Counted from the first letter of the stretch, positions 1-54,370 are shown. The stretch: 64,000 nucleotides of DNA from Alphaproteobacteria bacterium (GCA_965228895.1 OZ245842.1:5440001-5504000), one strand, 5' to 3'. Notes: generated from the sequence alone by a model not told the origin. A program made the numbers and translations.

Positions 1-536
1 CCGATAGCGACGGTATGAGTGCGCTCATGCGCCACGGCATTGCCGGCCTGGTCGACCTGACGCCCGATGCCTTGGCGCTGGCCGCCCATACGGTCAACGC
101 CTGGCGCCGGCTGACGCCGGGTAACTGGGCGCCGCGCACCGCTACATGGGCGATCCAGAACTATGCCGTCGCCGTGCGCGCGGTACCGGTGCCGGAAACG
201 GCGGCGAGGCTGGAGTATCGCCTGCCGGCCGCCGACACCAACCCCTATCTGGCGATTGCGCTGACGCTGGGCGCCGCGCTCGACGGCATCGAGAACGCCA
301 CGGCATTGCCTGCGCCGATGGCCGGTGGCGGGCCCGACGAGACGCCGGAGGACATGCCCGGCCTGCCCCATGATCTCTTGGAGGCTGCCGATCGTTTGGA
401 TGCCAGTCAGAAGGCGCGCGCGATCTTCGGCGATGCCTTCATCGACTACTTCGTCGCCAGCCGCCGCCGTGAAGAGGCGGTGCTGCGTCGCCATGTCAGC
501 GCATTCGAACGCGCGCGTTACATTGAGGCCGTTTGA
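1..536 (+). CDS. Glutamine synthetase-like gamma-glutamyl ligase, C-terminal part (5' end outside window)
   Basis: Frame is open from the window edge. GS C-terminal motifs VNAWRRL, RLEYRLP, NPYLA and the ...ERARY end. Confidence 0.85.
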   Translation, partial: DSDGMSALMRHGIAGLVDLTPDALALAAHTVNAWRRLTPGNWAPRTATWAIQNYAVAVRAVPVPETAARLEYRLPAADTNPYLAIALTLGAALDGIENATALPAPMAGGGPDETPEDMPGLPHDLLEAADRLDASQKARAIFGDAFIDYFVASRRREEAVLRRHVSAFERARYIEAV

Positions 537-555
537 ATGCTCAGGAGACGATCAC

Positions 556-2022
556 GTGCTTGAAGTCGATGCCTATGCCCAGGCTCCCGGGCGGGATGAG
601 TTGATCGCCGAAGTCCGCGCCAAGATCAACGAGCTCGGGATCGATTTCATCTACTATCAGTATATCTCGATCACCGGTCGCATCATGGGCAAGGCAGCCC
701 CCGCGCCGCACTGGGAAGCGATGGCCATGAGCGGCATCCAGACCTGGTATGGCGGCGTGACGAATGTGTTTCCCAACCGTGCCGGCGAACTGCTGGGTTT
801 TCCATCGAATGCCCACGAGCTGATCGCGATCCCCGATCCCGACACCTTTTGTCAGTTGCCCTGGAACAAGCGTACGGCGCGTGTCTATTGCACGGTGTTT
901 TATGGCCGCCAGCAGGAAGGCAACCCCGGCGGTTTCATGGAAGAGGACGCGCGCGGCAATCTGCGCCGCGTCCACCAGCAGTTCATGGACGACCACGACG
1001 GCATGCATCTGCGCCACGGTTGCGAGCCCGAGATGTGCTGGCTGAAAAAGGGCGAGGACGGCATGCCCGACGGCGGGCCGACCAAACCCTATGCCTATCA
1101 CATCGACCAGTTCGAAGAACTGAGCTCGGTCTATATGAAGGTCATCGACTACGGCCAGCAGATGGGTCTCGACATGATCCAGGGCGATCACGAGGACGCG
1201 CCGGGTCAGCTTGAGCTCAACTTCATGTTCGACGACGCGCTTCGGACCTGCGACCGGTTGACCACCTACCGGCAGATTTGCGCCCAGGTCGCGCGCGAGG
1301 AGGGTCTGATCGCCTGCTTCCTGGCCAAGACCTTCATGGGCATGCCGGCCAATGGTTGCCATCACAACATGTCCCTGTGGCGCGGCGGCGATGACGAACT
1401 GGTGGCCCGTGTCGACGAGCCGCTGCCGGGCGTAAAGGATGTCTTCCATCACCGCAAGGGCGGCGAGAACCTGCTGCTTGGCGAGCCCGGTGACTGGATG
1501 CCCGGACCGGTCGGCCGCCAGGCCATCGGCGGCATGATGGCGCATCTGCCGGCACTGACCGCGATCGGCGCGTCGACGGTGAATTCCTACCGTCGGATGC
1601 TGGACCTCGGCATGTGGGCGCCGGTCTATGCCGACTGGGGTTACCAGAACCGCACGACCTCGCTGCGCGTTTCCGCGCCCGGCCGGTTCGAGTTCCGCGC
1701 CGTCGACTCCATGGTCAATCCGTATTTGATGGCCGCTGCGCTTCTGAAGTCGTTCGACGACGGCATCCGAAACGACATCGACCCCGGCGAGCCGGAACAC
1801 CGCAACATCTATGACGCCATGGAAGCCGGCAAGGAGGTCAAGCGCCTGCCGCGCTATTTCGGCGAAGCGCTCGACGCGCTGGCCGCCGATGAGGTGATCA
1901 AGTCGGCGCTGCCCGGCCGGCTTTACGAGATCTATATGGAGTACAAGACTGACGAGTGGGACAGGTTCAACGCCGAAGTCAGCGAATGGGACCTGAAAAC
2001 GTACCTGGACTGCCTGCCTTAG
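556..2022 (+). CDS. Glutamine synthetase family protein (probable gamma-glutamyl-amine ligase)
   Basis: Motifs GRIMGK, CEPE, HEDAPGQLE, GCHHNMS, NRTTSLR, FEFR, NPYL. Start moved to GTG 556, behind CAGGAGA at 542-548. Confidence 0.9.
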   Translation: MLEVDAYAQAPGRDELIAEVRAKINELGIDFIYYQYISITGRIMGKAAPAPHWEAMAMSGIQTWYGGVTNVFPNRAGELLGFPSNAHELIAIPDPDTFCQLPWNKRTARVYCTVFYGRQQEGNPGGFMEEDARGNLRRVHQQFMDDHDGMHLRHGCEPEMCWLKKGEDGMPDGGPTKPYAYHIDQFEELSSVYMKVIDYGQQMGLDMIQGDHEDAPGQLELNFMFDDALRTCDRLTTYRQICAQVAREEGLIACFLAKTFMGMPANGCHHNMSLWRGGDDELVARVDEPLPGVKDVFHHRKGGENLLLGEPGDWMPGPVGRQAIGGMMAHLPALTAIGASTVNSYRRMLDLGMWAPVYADWGYQNRTTSLRVSAPGRFEFRAVDSMVNPYLMAAALLKSFDDGIRNDIDPGEPEHRNIYDAMEAGKEVKRLPRYFGEALDALAADEVIKSALPGRLYEIYMEYKTDEWDRFNAEVSEWDLKTYLDCLP

Positions 2023-2158
2023 AGCGGGTCGTGGTTATGTGGAACCGGTTGACGGTTCCACATAACCACGTGAATCCGCTCTCACTCTATGAGTAGGGCA
2101 GATTCACCTTTCTTGACGGAATCGCGAAGCGATTCCATCAAAGCAGGATCTGCCCTAG
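2019..2158. repeat. 140-bp double-hairpin palindromic element, family 1, full copy
   Basis: Two long inverted repeats bounded by (C/T)TAG. Its reverse complement aligns without gaps to 59458-59597 (about 79% identity by manual count). Confidence 0.9.
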
Positions 2159-2178
2159 AGGCGTGACGGAGACCCCTG

Positions 2179-3042
2179 ATGATTGAGCTTAGCCAAGAAC
2201 AAATCGACCGTTTCAACGACGACGGATTCCTGTTCGTCGACAACCTGATCGATGAAGAAACCGCTGAAGAGATCAAGCAGCACTATGAGCTGATGTTCCG
2301 TGGCAACTTCGAAACGGGCATTCGGCCGGACGAGGTGAATTGGCAGGAGAGCACCGGCGATCCCAGCCTGACACGTCAGATCTGCAATGGCTGGAAAGGC
2401 GATCGCGCCATCGCCCGCGTTGTCTTGCGCGAGGATATCGGCCGTGCCTGTGCGACCCTCGGCGGTTGGCCGGGCGCGCGCATCAAGGTCGACAACGTCT
2501 TGTGGAAGCCGCCGGGCACGCGCCCGCTTGGCATGCACCAGGACTCCGCCTATCTCGCCTGGATCAATCCCTCCGACATGATCAGCTGCTGGATCGCGCT
2601 TGATGACACCAGCTCGGAGAGCGGCACCATGGAACTGGTCCGCGGCAGCCACAAGTGGCGCCATGCCAAGCCGGAGGGAGAGTTTCACGGTCCCGAGGAC
2701 TACCAGAAATACATGCGTCAGGCGGCAGCGGCAGAGGGTATTGATGAACCGGACGTCGTGCCGGTTGTCGCCAAGAAAGGCGGCGGTTCGTTCCATCACG
2801 GCTGGACGTGGCATGGGTCCGGTTTCAACCGTGCGACTTATCCGCGGCGGTCACTGGTCTCACACTGCATCTCGTCGGACGCCGAGTATGTACCGGAAAA
2901 CATTGGAACCGGTACTGGTCCGATGTACGGCCGTTACATGCATCGCGGTGATCGCGTGATGGAGGAAGACTACTTCCCGATCCTGTGGACACGCGACGGC
3001 CACCGCTCGGCCTGGATCGACGGCTGGCTTGGCGCTGCCTGA
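2179..3042 (+). CDS. Phytanoyl-CoA dioxygenase (PhyH) family Fe(II)/2OG oxygenase
   Basis: F..DGFL N-terminus, KPPG, HQD, WIALDD, RGSH, WHGS and RRSL motifs. Confidence 0.9.
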   Translation: MIELSQEQIDRFNDDGFLFVDNLIDEETAEEIKQHYELMFRGNFETGIRPDEVNWQESTGDPSLTRQICNGWKGDRAIARVVLREDIGRACATLGGWPGARIKVDNVLWKPPGTRPLGMHQDSAYLAWINPSDMISCWIALDDTSSESGTMELVRGSHKWRHAKPEGEFHGPEDYQKYMRQAAAAEGIDEPDVVPVVAKKGGGSFHHGWTWHGSGFNRATYPRRSLVSHCISSDAEYVPENIGTGTGPMYGRYMHRGDRVMEEDYFPILWTRDGHRSAWIDGWLGAA

Positions 3043-3045
3043 ACG

Positions 3046-4242
3046 ATGACGCAGCGCGCCGATCACGATAACCGGTACACGCTGTTCGACAGCGTGCCGA
3101 TGATGTGTGACGTGATCGGTGCCGACGGACGCTTGCTGGCGGCCAACCGCTACCAGACGGATGCCTTAGGCTATGCGCCGGGGACACTGGACGGTATGCC
3201 GCTCGCCAACGTTTATGCCGCTTCGGCGGCGGACCTCCTTCAACGCCAGCTTGAGGATGCGGCGGCGGGCGATCTGGGCAACGAGGAAGGCGTGCCGCTG
3301 CAGCTTCGTTGCCGTAACCGCTCGCTGGTCAACGTCTTGGCCAACATTGCACGGGACCGCAACGCGATGGGCGCGCCGTTGCTGAGGCTCGCCAAGTCGC
3401 GGCCGAACGAAACGACTCTGCGTGCTGAATCGATGGCGCGTGAGAACACCGTGCTGCGCGGCATTGTCGGAACCGCAAGCGATGCCTGCTGGTGCATCGA
3501 ATACGCCGAGCCGCTTGATCTGAGCGCGCCGGAATCGGAGGTTTTGCGCCAGTTCTTCGAGAACGTTTCTTATTGGCGGCTGTGCAACGAGGCGATGGCA
3601 AAGCTCTACAAGCTTCCCGCCGACCTCGACTTCAACGAGCAGAGCGTTCGTTTCTATTTTCCGCACAGCCCGGCCAACGAGGAGTTCGTCAAGAACCTCA
3701 TTGCAGCCAACTTCAACCTCGACAACGCCTTGTCGGTCGACCAGCGCCATGACGGTACTGCCATGTATGTCGAGAACGACGTGCGCGCCCATATTCGCGA
3801 CAGCAAGCTTTACCGGTTGTGGGGAACGGCGCGCGATATCTCCGGCTACAAGCGTAAGGAGCACGAGCTGACGCGTCGGGTCGACGACATGGTCGATGTG
3901 CTGAGCGCCGTGCCCGATCCCATTCTGGTGTTGGACGGCGACGGCCGGCTTGAGGCCGCGAACCCGGCGCTTGAGGCGGCACTTGGCTGGTCGATCGACG
4001 CCGCGTTGGGTACGGGAATCGATGACATCATCACCTTTGACGGCGGGTTCATGGCCGTCGCCGGCAGGCTTAACACCGGCACCGACGGTTTGCGCCTGCA
4101 GGTCGCGGTCACCGATACCGCCGGCGTCTCGCGCGCCTGTGACGTGACCCTGACACGGATTGACGAAGGCGGCACCGCGCCGCGCTACGTCGCGACGTTG
4201 CACGGTCTTGAGACCAATCTCGCCGTAGCGGGTGGATCATGA
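3046..4242 (+). CDS. Multi-PAS-domain protein with no recognisable output domain
   Basis: PAS-like repeats (DSVP..DADGRLLAAN, LCNEAMAKLY..WGTARDIS, AVPDPILVLDGDGRLEAAN). No His-kinase or GGDEF motif seen. Confidence 0.75.
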   Translation: MTQRADHDNRYTLFDSVPMMCDVIGADGRLLAANRYQTDALGYAPGTLDGMPLANVYAASAADLLQRQLEDAAAGDLGNEEGVPLQLRCRNRSLVNVLANIARDRNAMGAPLLRLAKSRPNETTLRAESMARENTVLRGIVGTASDACWCIEYAEPLDLSAPESEVLRQFFENVSYWRLCNEAMAKLYKLPADLDFNEQSVRFYFPHSPANEEFVKNLIAANFNLDNALSVDQRHDGTAMYVENDVRAHIRDSKLYRLWGTARDISGYKRKEHELTRRVDDMVDVLSAVPDPILVLDGDGRLEAANPALEAALGWSIDAALGTGIDDIITFDGGFMAVAGRLNTGTDGLRLQVAVTDTAGVSRACDVTLTRIDEGGTAPRYVATLHGLETNLAVAGGS

Positions 4243-5684
4243 GATTTCGCGCGCTCGAGATAGGCCATACGCCGGACGGCGCGCCACCGGCCGAGCTGCT
4301 GGCTGCGCTCGCCGAACCGGCGGTCGGGGCTATCGCCGATGCGATGCCGGATGCGCTGATGGCTGTCGATGGTGCCGGCATTGTCGTGCTCGCCAATCGC
4401 GCGGCTGAAAGCGTCCACGGTTTGAAACGTGCCGATCTGATGGGAAGCAGTCTGGCCGAATTGGCTGAGACCAGCGCGCTCGACTGTACGGAACTGGTCG
4501 ACACCTTTCATAACAACACCCGCGCTGACCTCTACGCGACGACGGCGGATGGTCGCGCCATGCTGATATCGGTCAGGCCGGTCCGCGACCGCCGGCGCGA
4601 CACGGTCTTTACGTTGTTTGTCATGCGTGATCTCGACGTCATCGATCACCAGCGCAACGCCGGTGCGCCGCGGCCGGGCCAGGAGCGTTTTCGGTTCCGC
4701 AACACCAAACCGACGGATGCGACCCCGGTCGATCACATGGTGACCAGTGCTGAGCTGGAAGCTGTTATTGCTTATGGCGAGCGCGCGATGGCGCGCCGCG
4801 CGCGTGTTCTGCTGACTGGCGAGTCCGGCACCGGCAAGACTGAGATCGCCAAACACCTGCACAGCCTTGTTTGCGGCGATGCCCGGCCGTTCGTCCACGT
4901 TAACTGTGGCAGCATTCCCGAGAGCCTGTTCGAATCGGAGATGTTCGGCTACGAACGCGGTTCGTTCACCGGCGCGCTGCAGGGTGGCAAGAAGGGTCTG
5001 ATCGAGAACGCCGGCGGCGGCACGCTGTTCCTCGATGAGGTCGGCGAGATCCCGTTGATGAGCCAGGCCAAGCTCCTGAACTTCCTGGAGGACGGAACGG
5101 TACAGCGTATCGGCGCGGCGACCGCCAAGCGGGTCGATGTGCGCGTCATCGCCGCGACGAACCGCGACCTCGACCTGATGGTCGACGAAGGCCGTTTCCG
5201 CCGCGATCTCTATTTCCGTCTCAGCGTGATCGCCCTCGACGTGCCGCCGCTAAGAGGCTCCCGCGATCTGATCGCCAATCTGCTCGATCTCTTCGTGTCA
5301 CGCGTCAACAAGCAGCGCATGCCGCCGCTCCACCTCGATGATGCTTGCCGCGCGGCGTTGCTCGCACACGACTATCCCGGCAACATTCGCGAACTCGCGA
5401 ACATTGTCGAACACCTCTCCGTCGTGGCCGAGGGGGACGCGAGCCCGGCCGATCTGCCGCCATCGGTCACCGACAAAGAGATTGCCAGTTTTGTTGATCC
5501 GACTCGTGCGGGAACACCTCATGGTTTCCCGAACATTTCGCTGAAAGAGGAAGTCAGGGCCTACGAAACGCAACTTATCGGCGAAGCGATCAGGGTTCTC
5601 GGCAGCAAACGCAAGGCCGCGCGTGCATTGGGTGTCGATATCGGTACCGTGGTGCGCAAGACGCGGCGAGGATCCGGGCGTTGA
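4239..5684 (+). CDS. Sigma54-dependent transcriptional activator (PAS-AAA+-Fis HTH)
   Basis: GESGTGKT, ESEMFGYERGSFTGA, LFLDEVGE, FRRDLYFRL, YPGNIREL and a C-terminal HTH. ATGA overlap with the upstream gene. Confidence 0.95.
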   Translation: MRFRALEIGHTPDGAPPAELLAALAEPAVGAIADAMPDALMAVDGAGIVVLANRAAESVHGLKRADLMGSSLAELAETSALDCTELVDTFHNNTRADLYATTADGRAMLISVRPVRDRRRDTVFTLFVMRDLDVIDHQRNAGAPRPGQERFRFRNTKPTDATPVDHMVTSAELEAVIAYGERAMARRARVLLTGESGTGKTEIAKHLHSLVCGDARPFVHVNCGSIPESLFESEMFGYERGSFTGALQGGKKGLIENAGGGTLFLDEVGEIPLMSQAKLLNFLEDGTVQRIGAATAKRVDVRVIAATNRDLDLMVDEGRFRRDLYFRLSVIALDVPPLRGSRDLIANLLDLFVSRVNKQRMPPLHLDDACRAALLAHDYPGNIRELANIVEHLSVVAEGDASPADLPPSVTDKEIASFVDPTRAGTPHGFPNISLKEEVRAYETQLIGEAIRVLGSKRKAARALGVDIGTVVRKTRRGSGR

Positions 5685-5895
5685 TACGCCATGGGTACGT
5701 GATGACTGGCGGCCGGTTGCGGCCGCCGTTCCGGGTCGTTGGCGCCCCGGCCGCTACTGAGCTGCGGACAACGCGTCATTTCAACGCCGCCCGTTCGGCG
5801 CTACAAGTAACCAATCCGGTGCAAGGCGGGGAACGCACCGGGCTTGACGGTCAACGCCGTTGGGCAACGACCAACATCCGCTAAGGAGGCTTTTC

Positions 5896-50100: not shown

Positions 50101-51348
50101 CTAGGGGCTGGATCCGCAGTCGAAGGCGCCGGGCTCGAAAAAGTCCGGCGGGTAATGCGCGGCCGCGGTGACGATGTGGTTCTGGGTCTCGTCAAAAATC
50201 ATCTCGCGCCGCCAGACTAGATCGCCGTCCGCATCGGCCAACAGGACCCGGCCCCGTTCTGGTTCGGTCATCAGGATCGCGCCGTTGTCGAGCACCTGAT
50301 GGGTGCCGCGCTGCCAGGTATAGAACGAAACATCGCTGTTACCTTCGAAGGTCACTTCCCATTCGTCCGTTGCCGGATTGATGGCGATAATGCGCGACGC
50401 GCCCAACCCCATCTGGTTGTCGAACACGGAAATGCGGCCGTCGGGCAGAAAGTCGGGATCGTGCTGGCGGAACCAGGGTCCGTGCTTCCACCACTTCAGA
50501 AGCCGAGTCTCGGGGTCGATCACCGCGACCAGATTGAGCTCACGCAGGCTGATCAGAAGGTCGCCCGCTTCGAACATGGGAAAGGCGGCAGCAAGGTCTT
50601 CGGTCAACGGTTCGACGTCGTTCGAATGGAAGGCACTACCGTGATAGACGATCTGATCGGGGTCTTCGTCGGAATGAATCGAGAAGACACCGTACTGATT
50701 CTGCGCCGCGATAATGTCACGCTTGAGGTGAATGCTCTCCAGCACCTCACCGGTGTCGGCGTCCAGTTTGGTCAGGATCTCATTGACCCAGGACCAGATA
50801 ACACCGTCATCGCCGTTCGCGACGACGTGATGGTAGCGACCGGGTGTCACCCAGAGCGGCTGGCCGCAGGCATCGATGCGCGCGATGACGTTGCCGTTGT
50901 CGAACGCGACAGCAATTGAGCCATCCGAAAAAGCGAGCAGACCGTGCAGCATCACGTTCTCCTGCTTCTCGCCCTCGGGGTCGAGCGCCTCGTAGTCGAT
51001 CGCCCAGTGATGCAGTTCATTTCCCTGATCGTCATAGAGCGTCGCGCCTTGAAGCAGCGTGCGGTCGGGCGCAAGGCCGGCGATAAGGACCGGGCCGTCG
51101 GGAACGCTCGCCGGCTGCTCGATGCGGAAGGCAACGCGCATAGGATCGTCAGCCGGGACAAGGTGGCGGGTCGGTTCCAGCGCCAGATCGTTGCGCCAGT
51201 GTTCGGCCAGATCCATCACGGTCGCCCGCGCCTCGATGATTTGTGGTGCCGGGAAGACGCGGTAAATGACGGCAAACACGCCGAACGTGATGCACAGGAT
51301 GCCGAACGACGCAATGAACGCCGATCGCAAGAAACGATCTCCTGTCAT
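50101..51348 (-). CDS. Arylsulfotransferase (ASST) family protein with N-terminal membrane anchor
   Basis: N-terminal TM, YHH, FHSNDV, LLISLR, QHDPDF, VFDN and beta-propeller-like repeats. Confidence 0.85.
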   Translation of the reverse strand: MTGDRFLRSAFIASFGILCITFGVFAVIYRVFPAPQIIEARATVMDLAEHWRNDLALEPTRHLVPADDPMRVAFRIEQPASVPDGPVLIAGLAPDRTLLQGATLYDDQGNELHHWAIDYEALDPEGEKQENVMLHGLLAFSDGSIAVAFDNGNVIARIDACGQPLWVTPGRYHHVVANGDDGVIWSWVNEILTKLDADTGEVLESIHLKRDIIAAQNQYGVFSIHSDEDPDQIVYHGSAFHSNDVEPLTEDLAAAFPMFEAGDLLISLRELNLVAVIDPETRLLKWWKHGPWFRQHDPDFLPDGRISVFDNQMGLGASRIIAINPATDEWEVTFEGNSDVSFYTWQRGTHQVLDNGAILMTEPERGRVLLADADGDLVWRREMIFDETQNHIVTAAAHYPPDFFEPGAFDCGSSP

Positions 51349-52451
51349 CAGCGGATGCCCGCCGCTGCGATACCCATCGATTGCCCCGGCGTCAGGCAGC
51401 GTGCCAGGAGCGCTTGATGGACATCGCGGCATCGCGCCTTGAGCGACGCCGGAACATCAGGTTCCGGCGCCACGGTTGCGGCGCGGAAGCGATAAGCCTT
51501 GGCGATCAACGCGGCCGGTTGTTCAACGGCCAGCGCGTCGGCCAGGCTCTCCAGGTATTCCAAGGGCGAAGCGCAAAGGCCGTCATAGTCGATGTGGACC
51601 AGGCGTTCGGGCGACGCCTCCAGCACCGCTTCGTAACACGCGGCCCAACAAGCAAGCCAAAAGGCCGGCTGATCCGGTGTGACGCCACATTCGTGATGCC
51701 ATGTGTCGAAGCCTATCTGGCGAAGACCGGCGCCAAACTCGAAATGGCCGAGCCACGTCATGTAGCGCCGGGCAAAGGGATCATCGCTATGGATGCGGCA
51801 GAAATGACGGTGTTGGCGCAAAAGCGAGGCCGCCTGGGCCCAGGGATGGCGCACCGGAACGACAAACGTGGCGTCGGGGAAAAGCGTAGAGAGAAGGTCG
51901 AGCCGCGCGATGTTGACGTTGTTTTTTGACAGATAACGGTTTGCTGTCAGGCCGCCGGAAGCGACGATCTTTTTCATGTAGTCGCGGAAGAAACGCTCGA
52001 ACGCCGGGTACCTGTCCGTGGACGACCAGGGCTGGATCCGGTCGGCTTGATAATGATCGCGCCAGAACGCCTGCCAGACGACCTCTTCGAACGCCTCGGG
52101 GCTGTCAAATCCGACGTCCATGCCGTCGCCGTGCAGGCGTTCTTTGTTCTCGCTGCGCCGTTGGAACCGCGATGCCAGCATGGGCCATAGAAGCGGGCAC
52201 AGGGCGAACGGCATGTGCCGATAGGTCGCGGCGGCGAACTCCGGCAACATGTTGAGCACATCCAGCAACAATGTGGTGCCGGCGCGCGGCAGCGATGTCA
52301 CGAAGACCGGCCGCTCACACTGCGTTTGTGCCAGGCGGTCTCGAAACAGGCGGCATTCGACGCTGTTCAGAGCGATCTGCAGATCGACATTCGCGAAGGC
52401 CAGGCGATAAAGAGCCCGGTCAAAGCGGCCGTAGGGAACCTCCAGCGTCAT
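51348..52451 (-). CDS. PAPS-dependent sulfotransferase
   Basis: 5'-PSB loop FVTSLPRAGTT, YLSKNN, 3'-PB motif VRHPWAQAAS, YDGLC..P. Confidence 0.9.
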   Translation of the reverse strand: MTLEVPYGRFDRALYRLAFANVDLQIALNSVECRLFRDRLAQTQCERPVFVTSLPRAGTTLLLDVLNMLPEFAAATYRHMPFALCPLLWPMLASRFQRRSENKERLHGDGMDVGFDSPEAFEEVVWQAFWRDHYQADRIQPWSSTDRYPAFERFFRDYMKKIVASGGLTANRYLSKNNVNIARLDLLSTLFPDATFVVPVRHPWAQAASLLRQHRHFCRIHSDDPFARRYMTWLGHFEFGAGLRQIGFDTWHHECGVTPDQPAFWLACWAACYEAVLEASPERLVHIDYDGLCASPLEYLESLADALAVEQPAALIAKAYRFRAATVAPEPDVPASLKARCRDVHQALLARCLTPGQSMGIAAAGIR

Positions 52452-52453
52452 GG

Positions 52454-52819
52454 TCAGCGGACCACAAAGAGCGCCGTCATGGCGATCCCTGCGACCACGA
52501 TGACCTCCCAGCTTTCGGCTGCGGCGATGACGCTAGCGGTGTCATAGAGGTCAAGGGCGCCGCCGGAGACGACAAACAGGATGGTCAGGCCGATCGCACA
52601 CACCGACCAGAACAACAGCATGGCGAACGCGCGCAACATGGCGAGCGCGTCGCGCTGAATGCGCGTTTCCTTTTCATCGTCGCTGAGCGTGGTCGATGTC
52701 ATGACGCCCGTCGCCTCACGCATGGTCGACACCACCGCAAACGAACGTTCGACAACACGCCCAAGCTTGAGCACCGCGACAAAGAGCGCGAGCGCCAACG
52801 CCAGAACCAAATAGATCAT
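52454..52819 (-). CDS. Small membrane protein (about 3 TM), coupled to the sulfotransferase
   Basis: Hydrophobic segments around a charged LSDDEKE..Q loop. ATGA overlap upstream, 2-nt gap downstream. Confidence 0.75.
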   Translation of the reverse strand: MIYLVLALALALFVAVLKLGRVVERSFAVVSTMREATGVMTSTTLSDDEKETRIQRDALAMLRAFAMLLFWSVCAIGLTILFVVSGGALDLYDTASVIAAAESWEVIVVAGIAMTALFVVR

Positions 52820-53088
52820 CGGGCGTCGCGCGTTTCGTTTTCTCGATTGGTGGGCTGATTGCCATGACGGCGTCGTCGCAAACGACGGATTGGGTACCAG
52901 ACAAATCCGACGATCGCCAAAAGCAGCGCGGCGACCAGAGCCAGCACCGTGCCGATCGCGGTGAGACCGGCACCCGGTCCGACATAGGCAAGCGCCGGCG
53001 TCACCGGCATCAGCGCGAGAAGGGCGACGGCGACCGCGGCTGTCTGTGCAGTCGAACGGCCGAGCGTCTTTCTAGACATTGAGGACAT
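52816..53088 (-). CDS. Micro-protein: signal peptide, YVGPGAG, TM helix, polybasic tail
   Basis: A-L-A cleavage site, then YVGPGAG, about 22 hydrophobic residues and RRLRRRR. Start at 53088 or 53079. Confidence 0.75.
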   Translation of the reverse strand: MSSMSRKTLGRSTAQTAAVAVALLALMPVTPALAYVGPGAGLTAIGTVLALVAALLLAIVGFVWYPIRRLRRRRHGNQPTNRENETRDAR

Positions 53089-53250
53089 GAGCAACCTGTC
53101 ACCCGACGGTGCTGCCACGCTGCCGACGGGAACTGTCGCTGGGCACCATCGAGCCTTTTCTACAAAGGCGCGCTCAGGTCAGACAGTGGTCCAACAATTT
53201 GGCCCAATCATGACGGCATGACGGACGTTCTCGCCGCGGTTTTATTCCCA

Positions 53251-53463
53251 TCAACCGTCGAGAAGTTTTTTGAACGCGCGACCGGCGACGCGTGCCGGGT
53301 GGGTGCCGGGTTCTGCGTCGCGGGCGACCTGGCGCACCTCGGCGATCTTTTCTTCGACCACCGGCTTGGCGTGGGTCTCCGCGAGCTCGCGCGCCTTCGC
53401 CTTGACCTTGGGATCATTGACGACGCGCCGAGCGGCGAGAGCGACTAAGCTTCGTATCAACAT
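53251..53463 (-). CDS. Small hypothetical helical protein
   Basis: Natural-looking amphipathic sequence that fills the gap. Start uncertain (53463-53499). Confidence 0.5.
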   Translation of the reverse strand: MLIRSLVALAARRVVNDPKVKAKARELAETHAKPVVEEKIAEVRQVARDAEPGTHPARVAGRAFKKLLDG

Positions 53464-53523
53464 GGCGCTACCATAGCCCATTGCGTACTGAGATGGCACA
53501 GGTGCCGGCCATTGGCTCGTGTC

Positions 53524-53589
53524 CTAGAGCTGATTCACCTGTTTTGATGGAATCGCTTCGCGATGACATCTAACCATTATCCGCTCTAG
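53524..53589. repeat. Family 1 element, internally deleted copy (66 bp)
   Basis: Both ends match the ends of 59458-59597, CTAG at both termini. Confidence 0.85.
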
Positions 53590-54233
53590 ATCGGCGGCAC
53601 GGCGATGGCATTCGGCGCATCCGGGCCGGGCGCAAAGAACAGAAGCTGGACCAGCCTGCCGTTCTCGATGCTGTCGCCGAAACCGTCACCGCTGGAATGC
53701 CAGAACCAGGGCCGGAACAAGATGCAGCGGTTGAACTTCATCGGCAGCGTGAAATGCAGCTCCCACGCTTCGGGATCGCTCGCGTTCTCAAGGGTCAGAA
53801 TGTCGGTCAAGGCATCGCGCGGCGTCGGCTTTCCATAGGTTTCCTGGGCTTCCTGATCGGTCAGCGGTGCGCGGTCGGTGCCGTAGCGGCGATTGATGAA
53901 AAAGTCCGTGCCGCCCGAAGCATGTTCGTCAAGCGTCAGATAGATAATGGCGGCCCAACAGCATCCGGGATCCACGTGGATCCGACCCCGGCGCTTATCC
54001 TCGGCCAGCGTAATGCGGGTCCGGCCATGCGCCTGTGACTTATGCACCACCTGATGGCCCAGGATCTGGCTGAACATCTCCTCATGGCCCGGCCACGCCA
54101 TCGATTCCATGGAGTTGCGCCCGGGGTAATAGACCTCAGGCGGCGGGTCCGGATAGGTCATCGACAGAGCGGTCTCGCGGGCCTTATCGGGGTTGCCGAA
54201 GAAGTCGTCGATGACGAGAAACGATTGCTGCAT
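53586..54233 (-). CDS. DUF6445-like putative Fe(II)/2OG oxygenase
   Basis: VIDDFF.NP, YPG, IHVD, AAIIYL, GGT.F, KFNR..LF..WH. Confidence 0.75.
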   Translation of the reverse strand: MQQSFLVIDDFFGNPDKARETALSMTYPDPPPEVYYPGRNSMESMAWPGHEEMFSQILGHQVVHKSQAHGRTRITLAEDKRRGRIHVDPGCCWAAIIYLTLDEHASGGTDFFINRRYGTDRAPLTDQEAQETYGKPTPRDALTDILTLENASDPEAWELHFTLPMKFNRCILFRPWFWHSSGDGFGDSIENGRLVQLLFFAPGPDAPNAIAVPPI

Positions 54234-54301
54234 GACTTTCCGTGTTCGTTTCGCAGGTGTTGGGGCCAGCGTGCAACGCCGGCCCCGGCCTGGCAAGAAT
54301 G

Positions 54302-54370
54302 CTAGAGCGGATCGTCGTTTGGCGGAACCGGTTGACGGTTCCACCTAACGACGTGAATCCGCTCTCTATC
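54302..54370. repeat. Family 1 element, half copy (hairpin A only)
   Basis: CTAGAGCGGATC..GGAACCGGTTGACGGTTCC..GTGAATCCGCTCT matches 2019-2087. Confidence 0.85.

Follow-up and report, generated by a model that had tools for sequence, protein, structure and literature searches.

A tyrosine-tipped microprotein conserved beside a PAPS-type sulfotransferase and an ASST-like enzyme: a candidate component of sulfation machinery at the bacterial inner membrane

The window analysed here, a stretch of 64,000 nucleotides from an Alphaproteobacteria bacterium (GCA_965228895.1 OZ245842.1:5440001-5504000), carries a four-gene operon on its minus strand; positions are counted from the first letter of the window, and all features of the window given below lie on that strand. 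The operon begins with the gene of a microprotein, 90 aa long from its ATG (52816..53088) and recognized both as an ORF call and by its large family. It is followed by the genes of a 121-aa membrane protein with three transmembrane (TM) helices (52454..52819), a PAPS-type sulfotransferase of 367 aa (51348..52451) and an ASST-like protein of 415 aa that belongs to the six-bladed-propeller family and has an N-terminal TM anchor (50101..51348). The four genes are separated by gaps of no more than 2 nt or overlap, and the stop codon of the microprotein overlaps the start of the next gene as ATGA. Pfam searches with the operon genes gave matches to Sulfotransfer_3 and Arylsulfotran_2 only. Other starts are available to the microprotein: a GTG upstream at 53118 would give a protein of 100 aa, and a 99%-identical database protein of 87 aa (P0001) uses an ATG that lies in frame at residue 4. 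A whole-genome search found the microprotein as a single copy in its own genome. We scanned the region for promoters and found no promoter-like sites, and terminator-like sites did not exceed the level of shuffled sequence. The operon shows no GC anomaly, which speaks against reading it as a genomic island. Just upstream of it lie an 82-aa ORF with no family (53251-53499) and a DUF6445 gene (53586-54344). These two are shared only with the closest relative among the loci described below (L001) and therefore lie outside the cassette; the other neighbour genes of the window likewise recur, among 80 loci, only in that relative.

Several features can be recognized in the microprotein itself. Residues 1-34 (52987..53088) are predicted to form a Sec/YidC-type signal peptide, with Lys and Arg in the n-region, an h-region of about 11 hydrophobic residues and a c-region that ends P-V-T-P-A-L-A. 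Cleavage after A-L-A would expose the mature N-terminus Y-V-G-P-G-A-G (52966..52986), a stretch marked by its conservation among homologues and probably periplasmic according to the positive-inside rule. Its first residue, Tyr+1, is residue 35 of the precursor and is encoded by the codon TAT at 52986-52984. There follow a single TM helix of 23 residues (L42-W64, 52897..52965) with a conserved ladder of small residues and, recognized by conservation among homologues, the motif W-Y-P-x-[KR]-R with an Arg-rich tail (52867..52899), predicted to lie at the cytoplasmic face. In this protein the residues after the helix read Y-P-I and R-R-L-R-R-R-R before a polar C-terminal end. The signal peptide ending in A-L-A, the YVGPGAG start, the single TM helix and the RRLRRRR stretch had all been claimed in the preliminary description, and each is present where it was placed.

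The microprotein ORF is a real gene, and it belongs to a large family without a name. A word-seeded search gave 885 candidates of 49-158 aa, among which 610 small homologues were found at E<=0.01, every one of them unnamed or annotated as 'hypothetical'. We then scored a family profile of 30 homologues against 1.84 billion cluster representatives; 2828 representatives passed E<=1e-3, of which 1280 also passed E<=1e-10, and the 150 best matches were without exception 64-131 aa long. The idea that the gene is small enough to be missed by annotation did not hold, as many homologues have been deposited as 'hypothetical protein'. No Pfam or NCBIfam model matched the microprotein at its cut-off, its neighbours in the Protein Atlas are unnamed clusters, and its arrangement of motif, TM helix and basic tail has no match to a curated family or to known C-terminal sorting signals. 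Searching for longer homologues yielded three proteins of 159-183 aa, which have over-called N-termini and no extra domain.

Conservation is concentrated in the part of the protein that would remain after cleavage. Tyr+1 is found in all 257 homologues that were fetched and is never replaced by Phe or Trp. The strict motif is present in 253 of them, and the remaining four keep Tyr+1 and deviate elsewhere in the motif. Tyr+1 is likewise present at 80 of 80 loci (the best 80 of 120 confirmed), which span Alpha- and Gammaproteobacteria, Desulfobacteraceae, Acidobacteriota and Planctomycetota. Among the 253 homologues, position -1 is Ala in 250 and position -3 is Ala in 240, Val in six, Ser in four and Gly in three, whereas position -2 is variable and takes at least eight different residues. 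A restriction to small residues at -3 and -1 combined with an unconstrained -2 is what the signal peptidase I rule describes. Upstream of this cleavage motif, neither the sequence nor the length of the pre-sequence is conserved. Downstream of Tyr+1, G+3, P+4 and G+5 are at or near 100% in the 257 homologues, A+6 is at 95% and G+7 at 99%, and not a single indel occurs between Tyr+1 and Arg+35. The ladder in the TM helix consists of the conserved small residues G+12, A+16, A+20, A+24 and G+27, and the whole helix is more conserved than the sulfotransferase or the ASST-like enzyme. The helical periodicity of this conservation is weak, with 251 of 5000 shuffles equalling the observed moment. At the other end of the helix W+30 is conserved at about 100%, Y+31 at 97%, P+32 at 100% and R+35 at 99% (257 homologues). 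Y+31 is replaced by Phe in seven of the 257 homologues and by Leu in one (L049), and these replacements rule out this residue (Tyr65, in W-Y-P) as an acceptor for a cytoplasmic enzyme. Since Tyr+1 never varies while Y+31 does, the hydroxyl at +1 looks essential.

The 121-aa protein encoded next in the operon is the membrane anchor of the sulfotransferase. Its AF2 model (pLDDT 94) shows TM1, a helical hairpin, TM2 and TM3, with a D-x-x-K-E motif in the hairpin, which is predicted to be cytoplasmic. In 70 loci a similar ORF comes after the microprotein. The anchor and the sulfotransferase form one ORF of about 490-500 aa in at least 28 loci and are separate in 12; these fusions indicate that the 121-aa protein is a detached membrane anchor of the sulfotransferase. 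Loop 1 of the anchor has a median of seven Lys and Arg residues against zero for loop 2, with the bias found in 71 of 71 sequences, which would place the catalytic domain of the sulfotransferase in the cytoplasm. The anchor is otherwise poorly conserved. Only F13 and E51 reach 90% in an alignment of 41 sequences, F13, A36, K50 and E51 reach at least 85% among 71, and there is no invariant polar residue in either set. The D-x-x-K-E motif is its sole well-conserved one, and is acidic and situated in the cytoplasmic hairpin, opposite the basic tail of the microprotein. Foldseek gave no match to the PDB at E<=1e-3. An Oxa1/DUF106-type insertase was considered for this protein and rejected, as none of 41 members has a Pfam match, Foldseek gives no support and the topology of three TM helices plus a hairpin alone is similar. 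Comparison by hhalign with the 283-aa membrane protein of the Planctomycetota loci described below did not support the insertase reading either.

The sulfotransferase is assigned to Pfam Sulfotransfer_3 (PF13469, E 1.6e-19) and is predicted to be cytoplasmic. It retains the nucleotide-binding loop and other invariant residues. Among solved structures its profile matches human TPST1 (6.1e-11) and TPST2 best, with mycobacterial Stf1 and the CurM ST next. Its AF2 model (pLDDT 92.5) has Stf9, TPST2, Stf1 and TPST1 as top Foldseek matches, at TM scores of about 0.4-0.5. The genome of the organism also encodes APS kinase; there are two APS-kinase matches, one of them within an open frame of 736 aa. 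Of the 11 Sulfotransfer_3 matches in the same genome, at least five form a cluster of less than 6 kb outside the window, at G000:C1:5021403-5026858.

The ASST-like protein matches PF14269 at E 7.6e-31. Its start is taken as an ATG that overlaps the upstream stop codon, and a longer ORF starts at 51432. H174, H241, N243 and H296 are conserved in all 44 relatives and R269 in 43 of the 44. The profile matches PDB 9kf6 at 3.5e-15 and E. coli AssT (3elq) at 2.6e-4, and in the profile alignment Q-H296 falls on Q435-H436 of the latter. His436 of E. coli AssT is described in PMC13426309 as the residue that becomes sulfated, and 9kf6 is referred to as a Streptomyces ASST with three histidines in place in a preprint (10.64898/2026.10.08.757629). 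Judged by alignment, the catalytic set of His, H-x-N, Arg and His is intact in this enzyme. A hydrophobic N-terminal anchor is present in 41 of the 44 relatives, and C161 and C411, which could form a disulfide, are each conserved in 37. The Cys pair and the anchor together fit a periplasmic site for the protein. Complex prediction with the mature peptide scored 0.01 against a mark of 0.32, a score that we weigh neither for nor against binding.

We examined how faithfully these genes stay together by scanning one genome per species, which gave 120 confirmed loci, of which the best 80 were analysed. Among these 80, a Sulfotransfer_3 homologue is present in 76 and an Arylsulfotran_2 (ASST-like) homologue in 75, and 74 have microprotein, anchor and sulfotransferase in this order on the same strand. 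The ASST-like gene lies directly after them in 48 loci, directly upstream of the microprotein in 16 and elsewhere in the locus in six, and is absent from four. When the flanking ORFs were clustered all against all, no other family turned up in more than 13 of the 80 loci. Four untruncated loci lack one of the two enzymes. The genomes of two of them (L055 and L059) have an ASST-like gene elsewhere and that of a third (L048) has a sulfotransferase on another contig, while a search of the genome of the fourth (L024) did not find the missing enzyme elsewhere. We also sampled 301 genomes evenly across the class and detected the microprotein in 14 of them (E<=1e-5) and an ASST-like gene in 23 (E<=1e-20). 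Of the 14, 13 are also positive for the ASST-like gene, mostly no more than 2 kb away. One genome (G110) has two microprotein copies, each beside its own ASST-like gene (C1:272769-274432 and C1:2948463-2951509). Ten genomes are positive for the ASST-like gene and lack the microprotein; the ASST match is weaker in eight of these and strong in two (G196 and G069). In 11 loci of the Roseobacter group (L017, L028, L032, L039, L065, L067, L072, L075, L077, L078 and L079, at about 500-5800 in each), genes for an AsmA-family protein, a TMEM260-like GT-C glycosyltransferase and a DUF4185 protein lie on the same strand just upstream of the microprotein. This trio is perhaps a hint at an envelope glycan as the final acceptor.

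The same N-terminal module occurs in a second setting. The microprotein profile matches 42 of 301 sampled Planctomycetota genomes, and in 17 of the 20 Planctomycetota loci listed the match is the N-terminus of a long ORF. Two of the listed loci (L122 and L125) have free-standing copies beside Sulfotransfer_3 and ASST-like genes, and in another (L123) the match has no strict motif and lies beside an ASST-like gene only. The long ORFs encode proteins of 704-754 aa with a Phosphodiest domain (PF01663), found in five of five tested and in 120 of 120 database relatives. Their N-terminus consists of a signal-like segment, A-x-A, Y-I-G-P-G-A-G, a TM helix and then [WY]-P-x-[KR]; the Tyr is kept in all 120 relatives and Ala at -1 in 119. 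An hhalign comparison with the microprotein family gave a probability of 98.5% and an E-value of 3.9e-15 over 58 columns, and we regard the fused module as homologous to the microprotein on the strength of this alignment. Fourteen Planctomycetota loci (L142-L155) were fetched for the neighbourhood of the fused gene. A paralogue that has a plain signal or anchor comes after it in 13 of the 14, and a 283-aa membrane protein in 12; APS kinase is encoded beside the fused gene in nine, ATP sulfurylase in seven and a short sulfatase-family protein in seven. A classical sulfotransferase (Sulfotransfer_3) is found in none of the 14 and an ASST-like gene in one. The operon of these loci, exemplified by L142:5738-14135, has the order ATP sulfurylase, short sulfatase-family gene, APS kinase, Tyr-module-Phosphodiest, paralogue and 283-aa membrane protein. 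A PDB search with the fused protein gave no match. Here too, then, although the enzymes are unrelated, the module is associated with a cytoplasmic and an exported enzyme and with activated sulfate. The Planctomycetota context is a second, independent tie to activated sulfate, and the shared module is new here.

We propose that the microprotein is the free-standing form of a 'Tyr-tipped' membrane module dedicated to a two-sided sulfation machinery. It would insert as a hairpin and be cut by signal peptidase I after A-L-A, giving a single-pass peptide of 56 residues with a free N-terminal Tyr on a flexible G-P-G-A-G stalk at the periplasmic face, and with the W-Y-P-x-R-R motif and the Arg tail at the cytoplasmic face. 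On the inside it would meet a membrane-anchored PAPS-type sulfotransferase, made up of the 121-aa anchor and the Sulfotransfer_3 protein, and on the outside a membrane-anchored PAPS-independent ASST-like propeller. The phenol of Tyr+1 would bear the sulfuryl group as sulfotyrosine and serve the ASST-like enzyme as donor or acceptor at the outer face. Such a chemical role is the most likely of the readings considered and the one we tentatively adopt; cleavage, topology, contact and sulfation are the steps that we infer, and what the data show is the gene with its family, the invariant positions, the cassette, the catalytic residues kept in both enzymes and the second setting tied to sulfate.

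Several observations favour sulfotyrosine. One invariant 7-mer faces two unrelated outer enzymes, and this would be explained more easily by a shared chemistry than by docking. Several of the peptides that ASTs sulfate reportedly begin with Tyr. By profile, the closest solved relatives of the sulfotransferase are protein-tyrosine sulfotransferases, which counts for sulfation of a tyrosine, and published ASTs are described as sulfating Tyr-containing peptides (PMC13426309). The preliminary description had proposed a Tyr-O-sulfate carrier between the two sulfotransferases or a sulfated end product, and had tied this to conservation of the Tyr and to co-location with sulfotransferases. The tyrosine proved invariant in the homologues (257/257), the loci (80/80) and the fused relatives (120/120), and co-location was borne out as well, by Sulfotransfer_3 in 76/80 loci, the ASST-like gene in 75/80 and 13 of 14 positive genomes that hold both microprotein and ASST-like gene. 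Together with the catalytic histidines of the ASST-like enzyme, these results uphold the proposal in part; the carrier version meets with difficulty in its membrane topology.

The difficulty arises because the PAPS enzyme would be cytoplasmic and the Tyr periplasmic, and no device that passes a sulfuryl group through the membrane was found. The 121-aa anchor, which lacks an invariant polar residue and a significant fold match, counts on the same side. Sulfation before export is disfavoured, since the module is the N-terminus of the Planctomycetota proteins of about 700 aa; made first in these fused proteins, it would insert co-translationally, and loading before export is unlikely there. A reusable or consumable sulfate carrier is one version of the proposed chemical role, possible but on the unlikely side. 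A Tyr-sulfated peptide as the end product is rather less probable again. Tight translational coupling suggests stoichiometric subunits and fits a consumed substrate poorly, and conservation of the TM helix above that of either enzyme exceeds what a mere substrate would need; both count against the proposed chemical role. Sites of TPSTs typically have acidic neighbours, and Tyr+1 has none. PAPS-synthesis genes adjoin the free-standing cassette in only one of the 80 loci (best 80 of 120), and this, like the strong ASST-like matches in at least two genomes where no microprotein was found (G196 and G069), speaks against sulfotyrosine.

The strongest rival to a chemical role is a non-covalent one, in which the microprotein is a structural organiser that keeps the sulfotransferase inside and the ASST-like enzyme outside aligned with each other across the membrane, another carrier (for example a flipped lipid-linked or small phenolic one) conveys the sulfuryl group and Tyr+1 serves only interfacial anchoring or partner binding. 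Translationally coupled genes in a fixed order are in keeping with such an organiser. Conservation along the full TM helix, the small-residue ladder and the lack of any indel in 257 homologues are what a packing interface or a ruler would be expected to show, and in Planctomycetota the module simply anchors a cytoplasmic enzyme. However, an anchoring aromatic residue should interchange with Trp or Phe, which Tyr+1 does in neither the 257 homologues nor the 120 fused relatives. The supposed partners show little conservation in their own TM helices, and outer partners of unrelated folds (the ASST propeller and the alkaline-phosphatase fold) face the same 7-mer. We consider a purely structural role unlikely, while giving it real weight.

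A further alternative is that the Gly/Ala ladder assembles the peptide into an oligomeric pore or conduit through which a product sulfated at the inner face, or the donor, passes to the periplasmic enzyme, with Tyr+1 at the outer mouth. The Gly and Ala residues spaced at i, i+4 and the fixed length of the module agree with this, as does the presence of a cytoplasmic and a periplasmic enzyme with the peptide in both contexts, but charged or strongly polar residues that could line an anion path are missing from the helix and the periodicity of its conservation is marginal, being reached by 251 of 5000 shuffles. A conduit is improbable. Equally improbable is a role in biogenesis alone (an N-out, C-in anchor made through a cleaved hairpin), or a Tyr that bears some other group such as phosphate or a nucleotide, with an incidental link to sulfotransferases: the architecture does resemble small YidC-dependent coat-protein precursors and the fused family has an enzyme of the phosphodiesterase type, which would normally transfer phosphoryl groups, but a free-standing anchor with no cargo would be purposeless and yet is kept beside the same enzymes in thousands of genomes, and both contexts point to activated sulfate.

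The proposed sulfotyrosine role can be set against known systems. One that resembles it in layout is teichoic-acid D-alanylation by DltA/C/B/X/D, which had been brought in by the preliminary description. DltX is also a tiny single-pass protein with an invariant Tyr at its extracytoplasmic end, and it too stands between a step fed from the cytoplasm and an outer enzyme that an N-terminal TM helix holds in the membrane; its Tyr is reported to carry the transferred group (PMC12148441). The two proteins are not homologous. The Tyr of DltX lies in a C-terminal F-x-Y-x-x-F motif, as given in the same source, and here it is N-terminal after a signal peptide. That C-terminal motif is absent from the microprotein, which ends in a variable basic or polar tail. 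The Dlt system moves an acyl group by way of the MBOAT protein DltB, whereas the candidate group here is sulfuryl, and no MBOAT or SGNH gene is present in the operon (Pfam) or recurrent at the 80 loci. The parallel therefore stands as an analogy, and fails for the motif and partners of DltX.

The caprazamycin cluster, with its two-step sulfation, resembles the cassette in its enzymes, since it combines a PAPS-dependent sulfotransferase with a PAPS-independent enzyme of the ASST type. The same Cpz-type pairing is found here, with a PAPS-type sulfotransferase next to an ASST-type enzyme that keeps its catalytic His. The carrier for caprazamycin is said to be a small polyketide phenol from a type III PKS, with all steps in the cytoplasm. 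In our cassette one enzyme would sit on each side of the membrane and a tyrosine in a protein is the candidate phenol; no type III PKS was found in the operon or among the recurrent flank families. Cpz4 is named in PMC13426309 as an ASST with an established physiological role.

In Xanthomonas, RaxX and RaxST provide another case of a gene for a short ribosomal peptide beside a PAPS-type sulfotransferase. RaxST is reported to sulfate one Tyr of RaxX (PMC6637879, PMC4646787), which is described as being exported by a peptidase-containing transporter (bioRxiv 10.1101/442517). The microprotein differs in having a Sec-type signal peptide, in being predicted to stay in the membrane, in lacking a transporter and in having the ASST-like enzyme in addition. 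No peptidase-containing ABC transporter is present in the operon, and an ABC ATPase occurs, at varied positions, in only 13 of the 80 loci. The closest likeness by descent is with the Phosphodiest proteins of about 720 aa in Planctomycetota, members of the alkaline-phosphatase superfamily, which share a homologous Tyr module, the tie to activated sulfate and the combination of cytoplasmic and exported enzyme partners. They differ in that the module is fused and not free, and in that the partner enzymes are of another fold.

Taken broadly, the Tyr-tipped module could be a general arm for handing a sulfuryl group over across the envelope, with sulfotyrosine as the physiological donor or acceptor of periplasmic PAPS-independent ASSTs and with the same arm serving an alkaline-phosphatase-fold pair in Planctomycetota that uses PAPS and no classical sulfotransferase. 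This extension is doubtful, and we offer it as a conjecture. Literature searches found no paper on the microprotein family or the cassette, nor did the motif strings lead to one, and the four-gene cassette is undescribed in the literature searched. PMC13426309 describes bacterial PAPS-independent aryl sulfotransferases as enzymes of unknown natural substrates and role. The cassette bears on how sulfate esters could be made outside the inner membrane, where PAPS is unavailable, and it provides a defined candidate, consisting of a 56-residue peptide with one invariant phenol and one enzyme on each side of the membrane. The occurrence of the same module on a different enzyme fold beside PAPS-synthesis genes suggests that marine and soil bacteria may have a wider, so far undescribed class of machines for sulfation that straddle the membrane.
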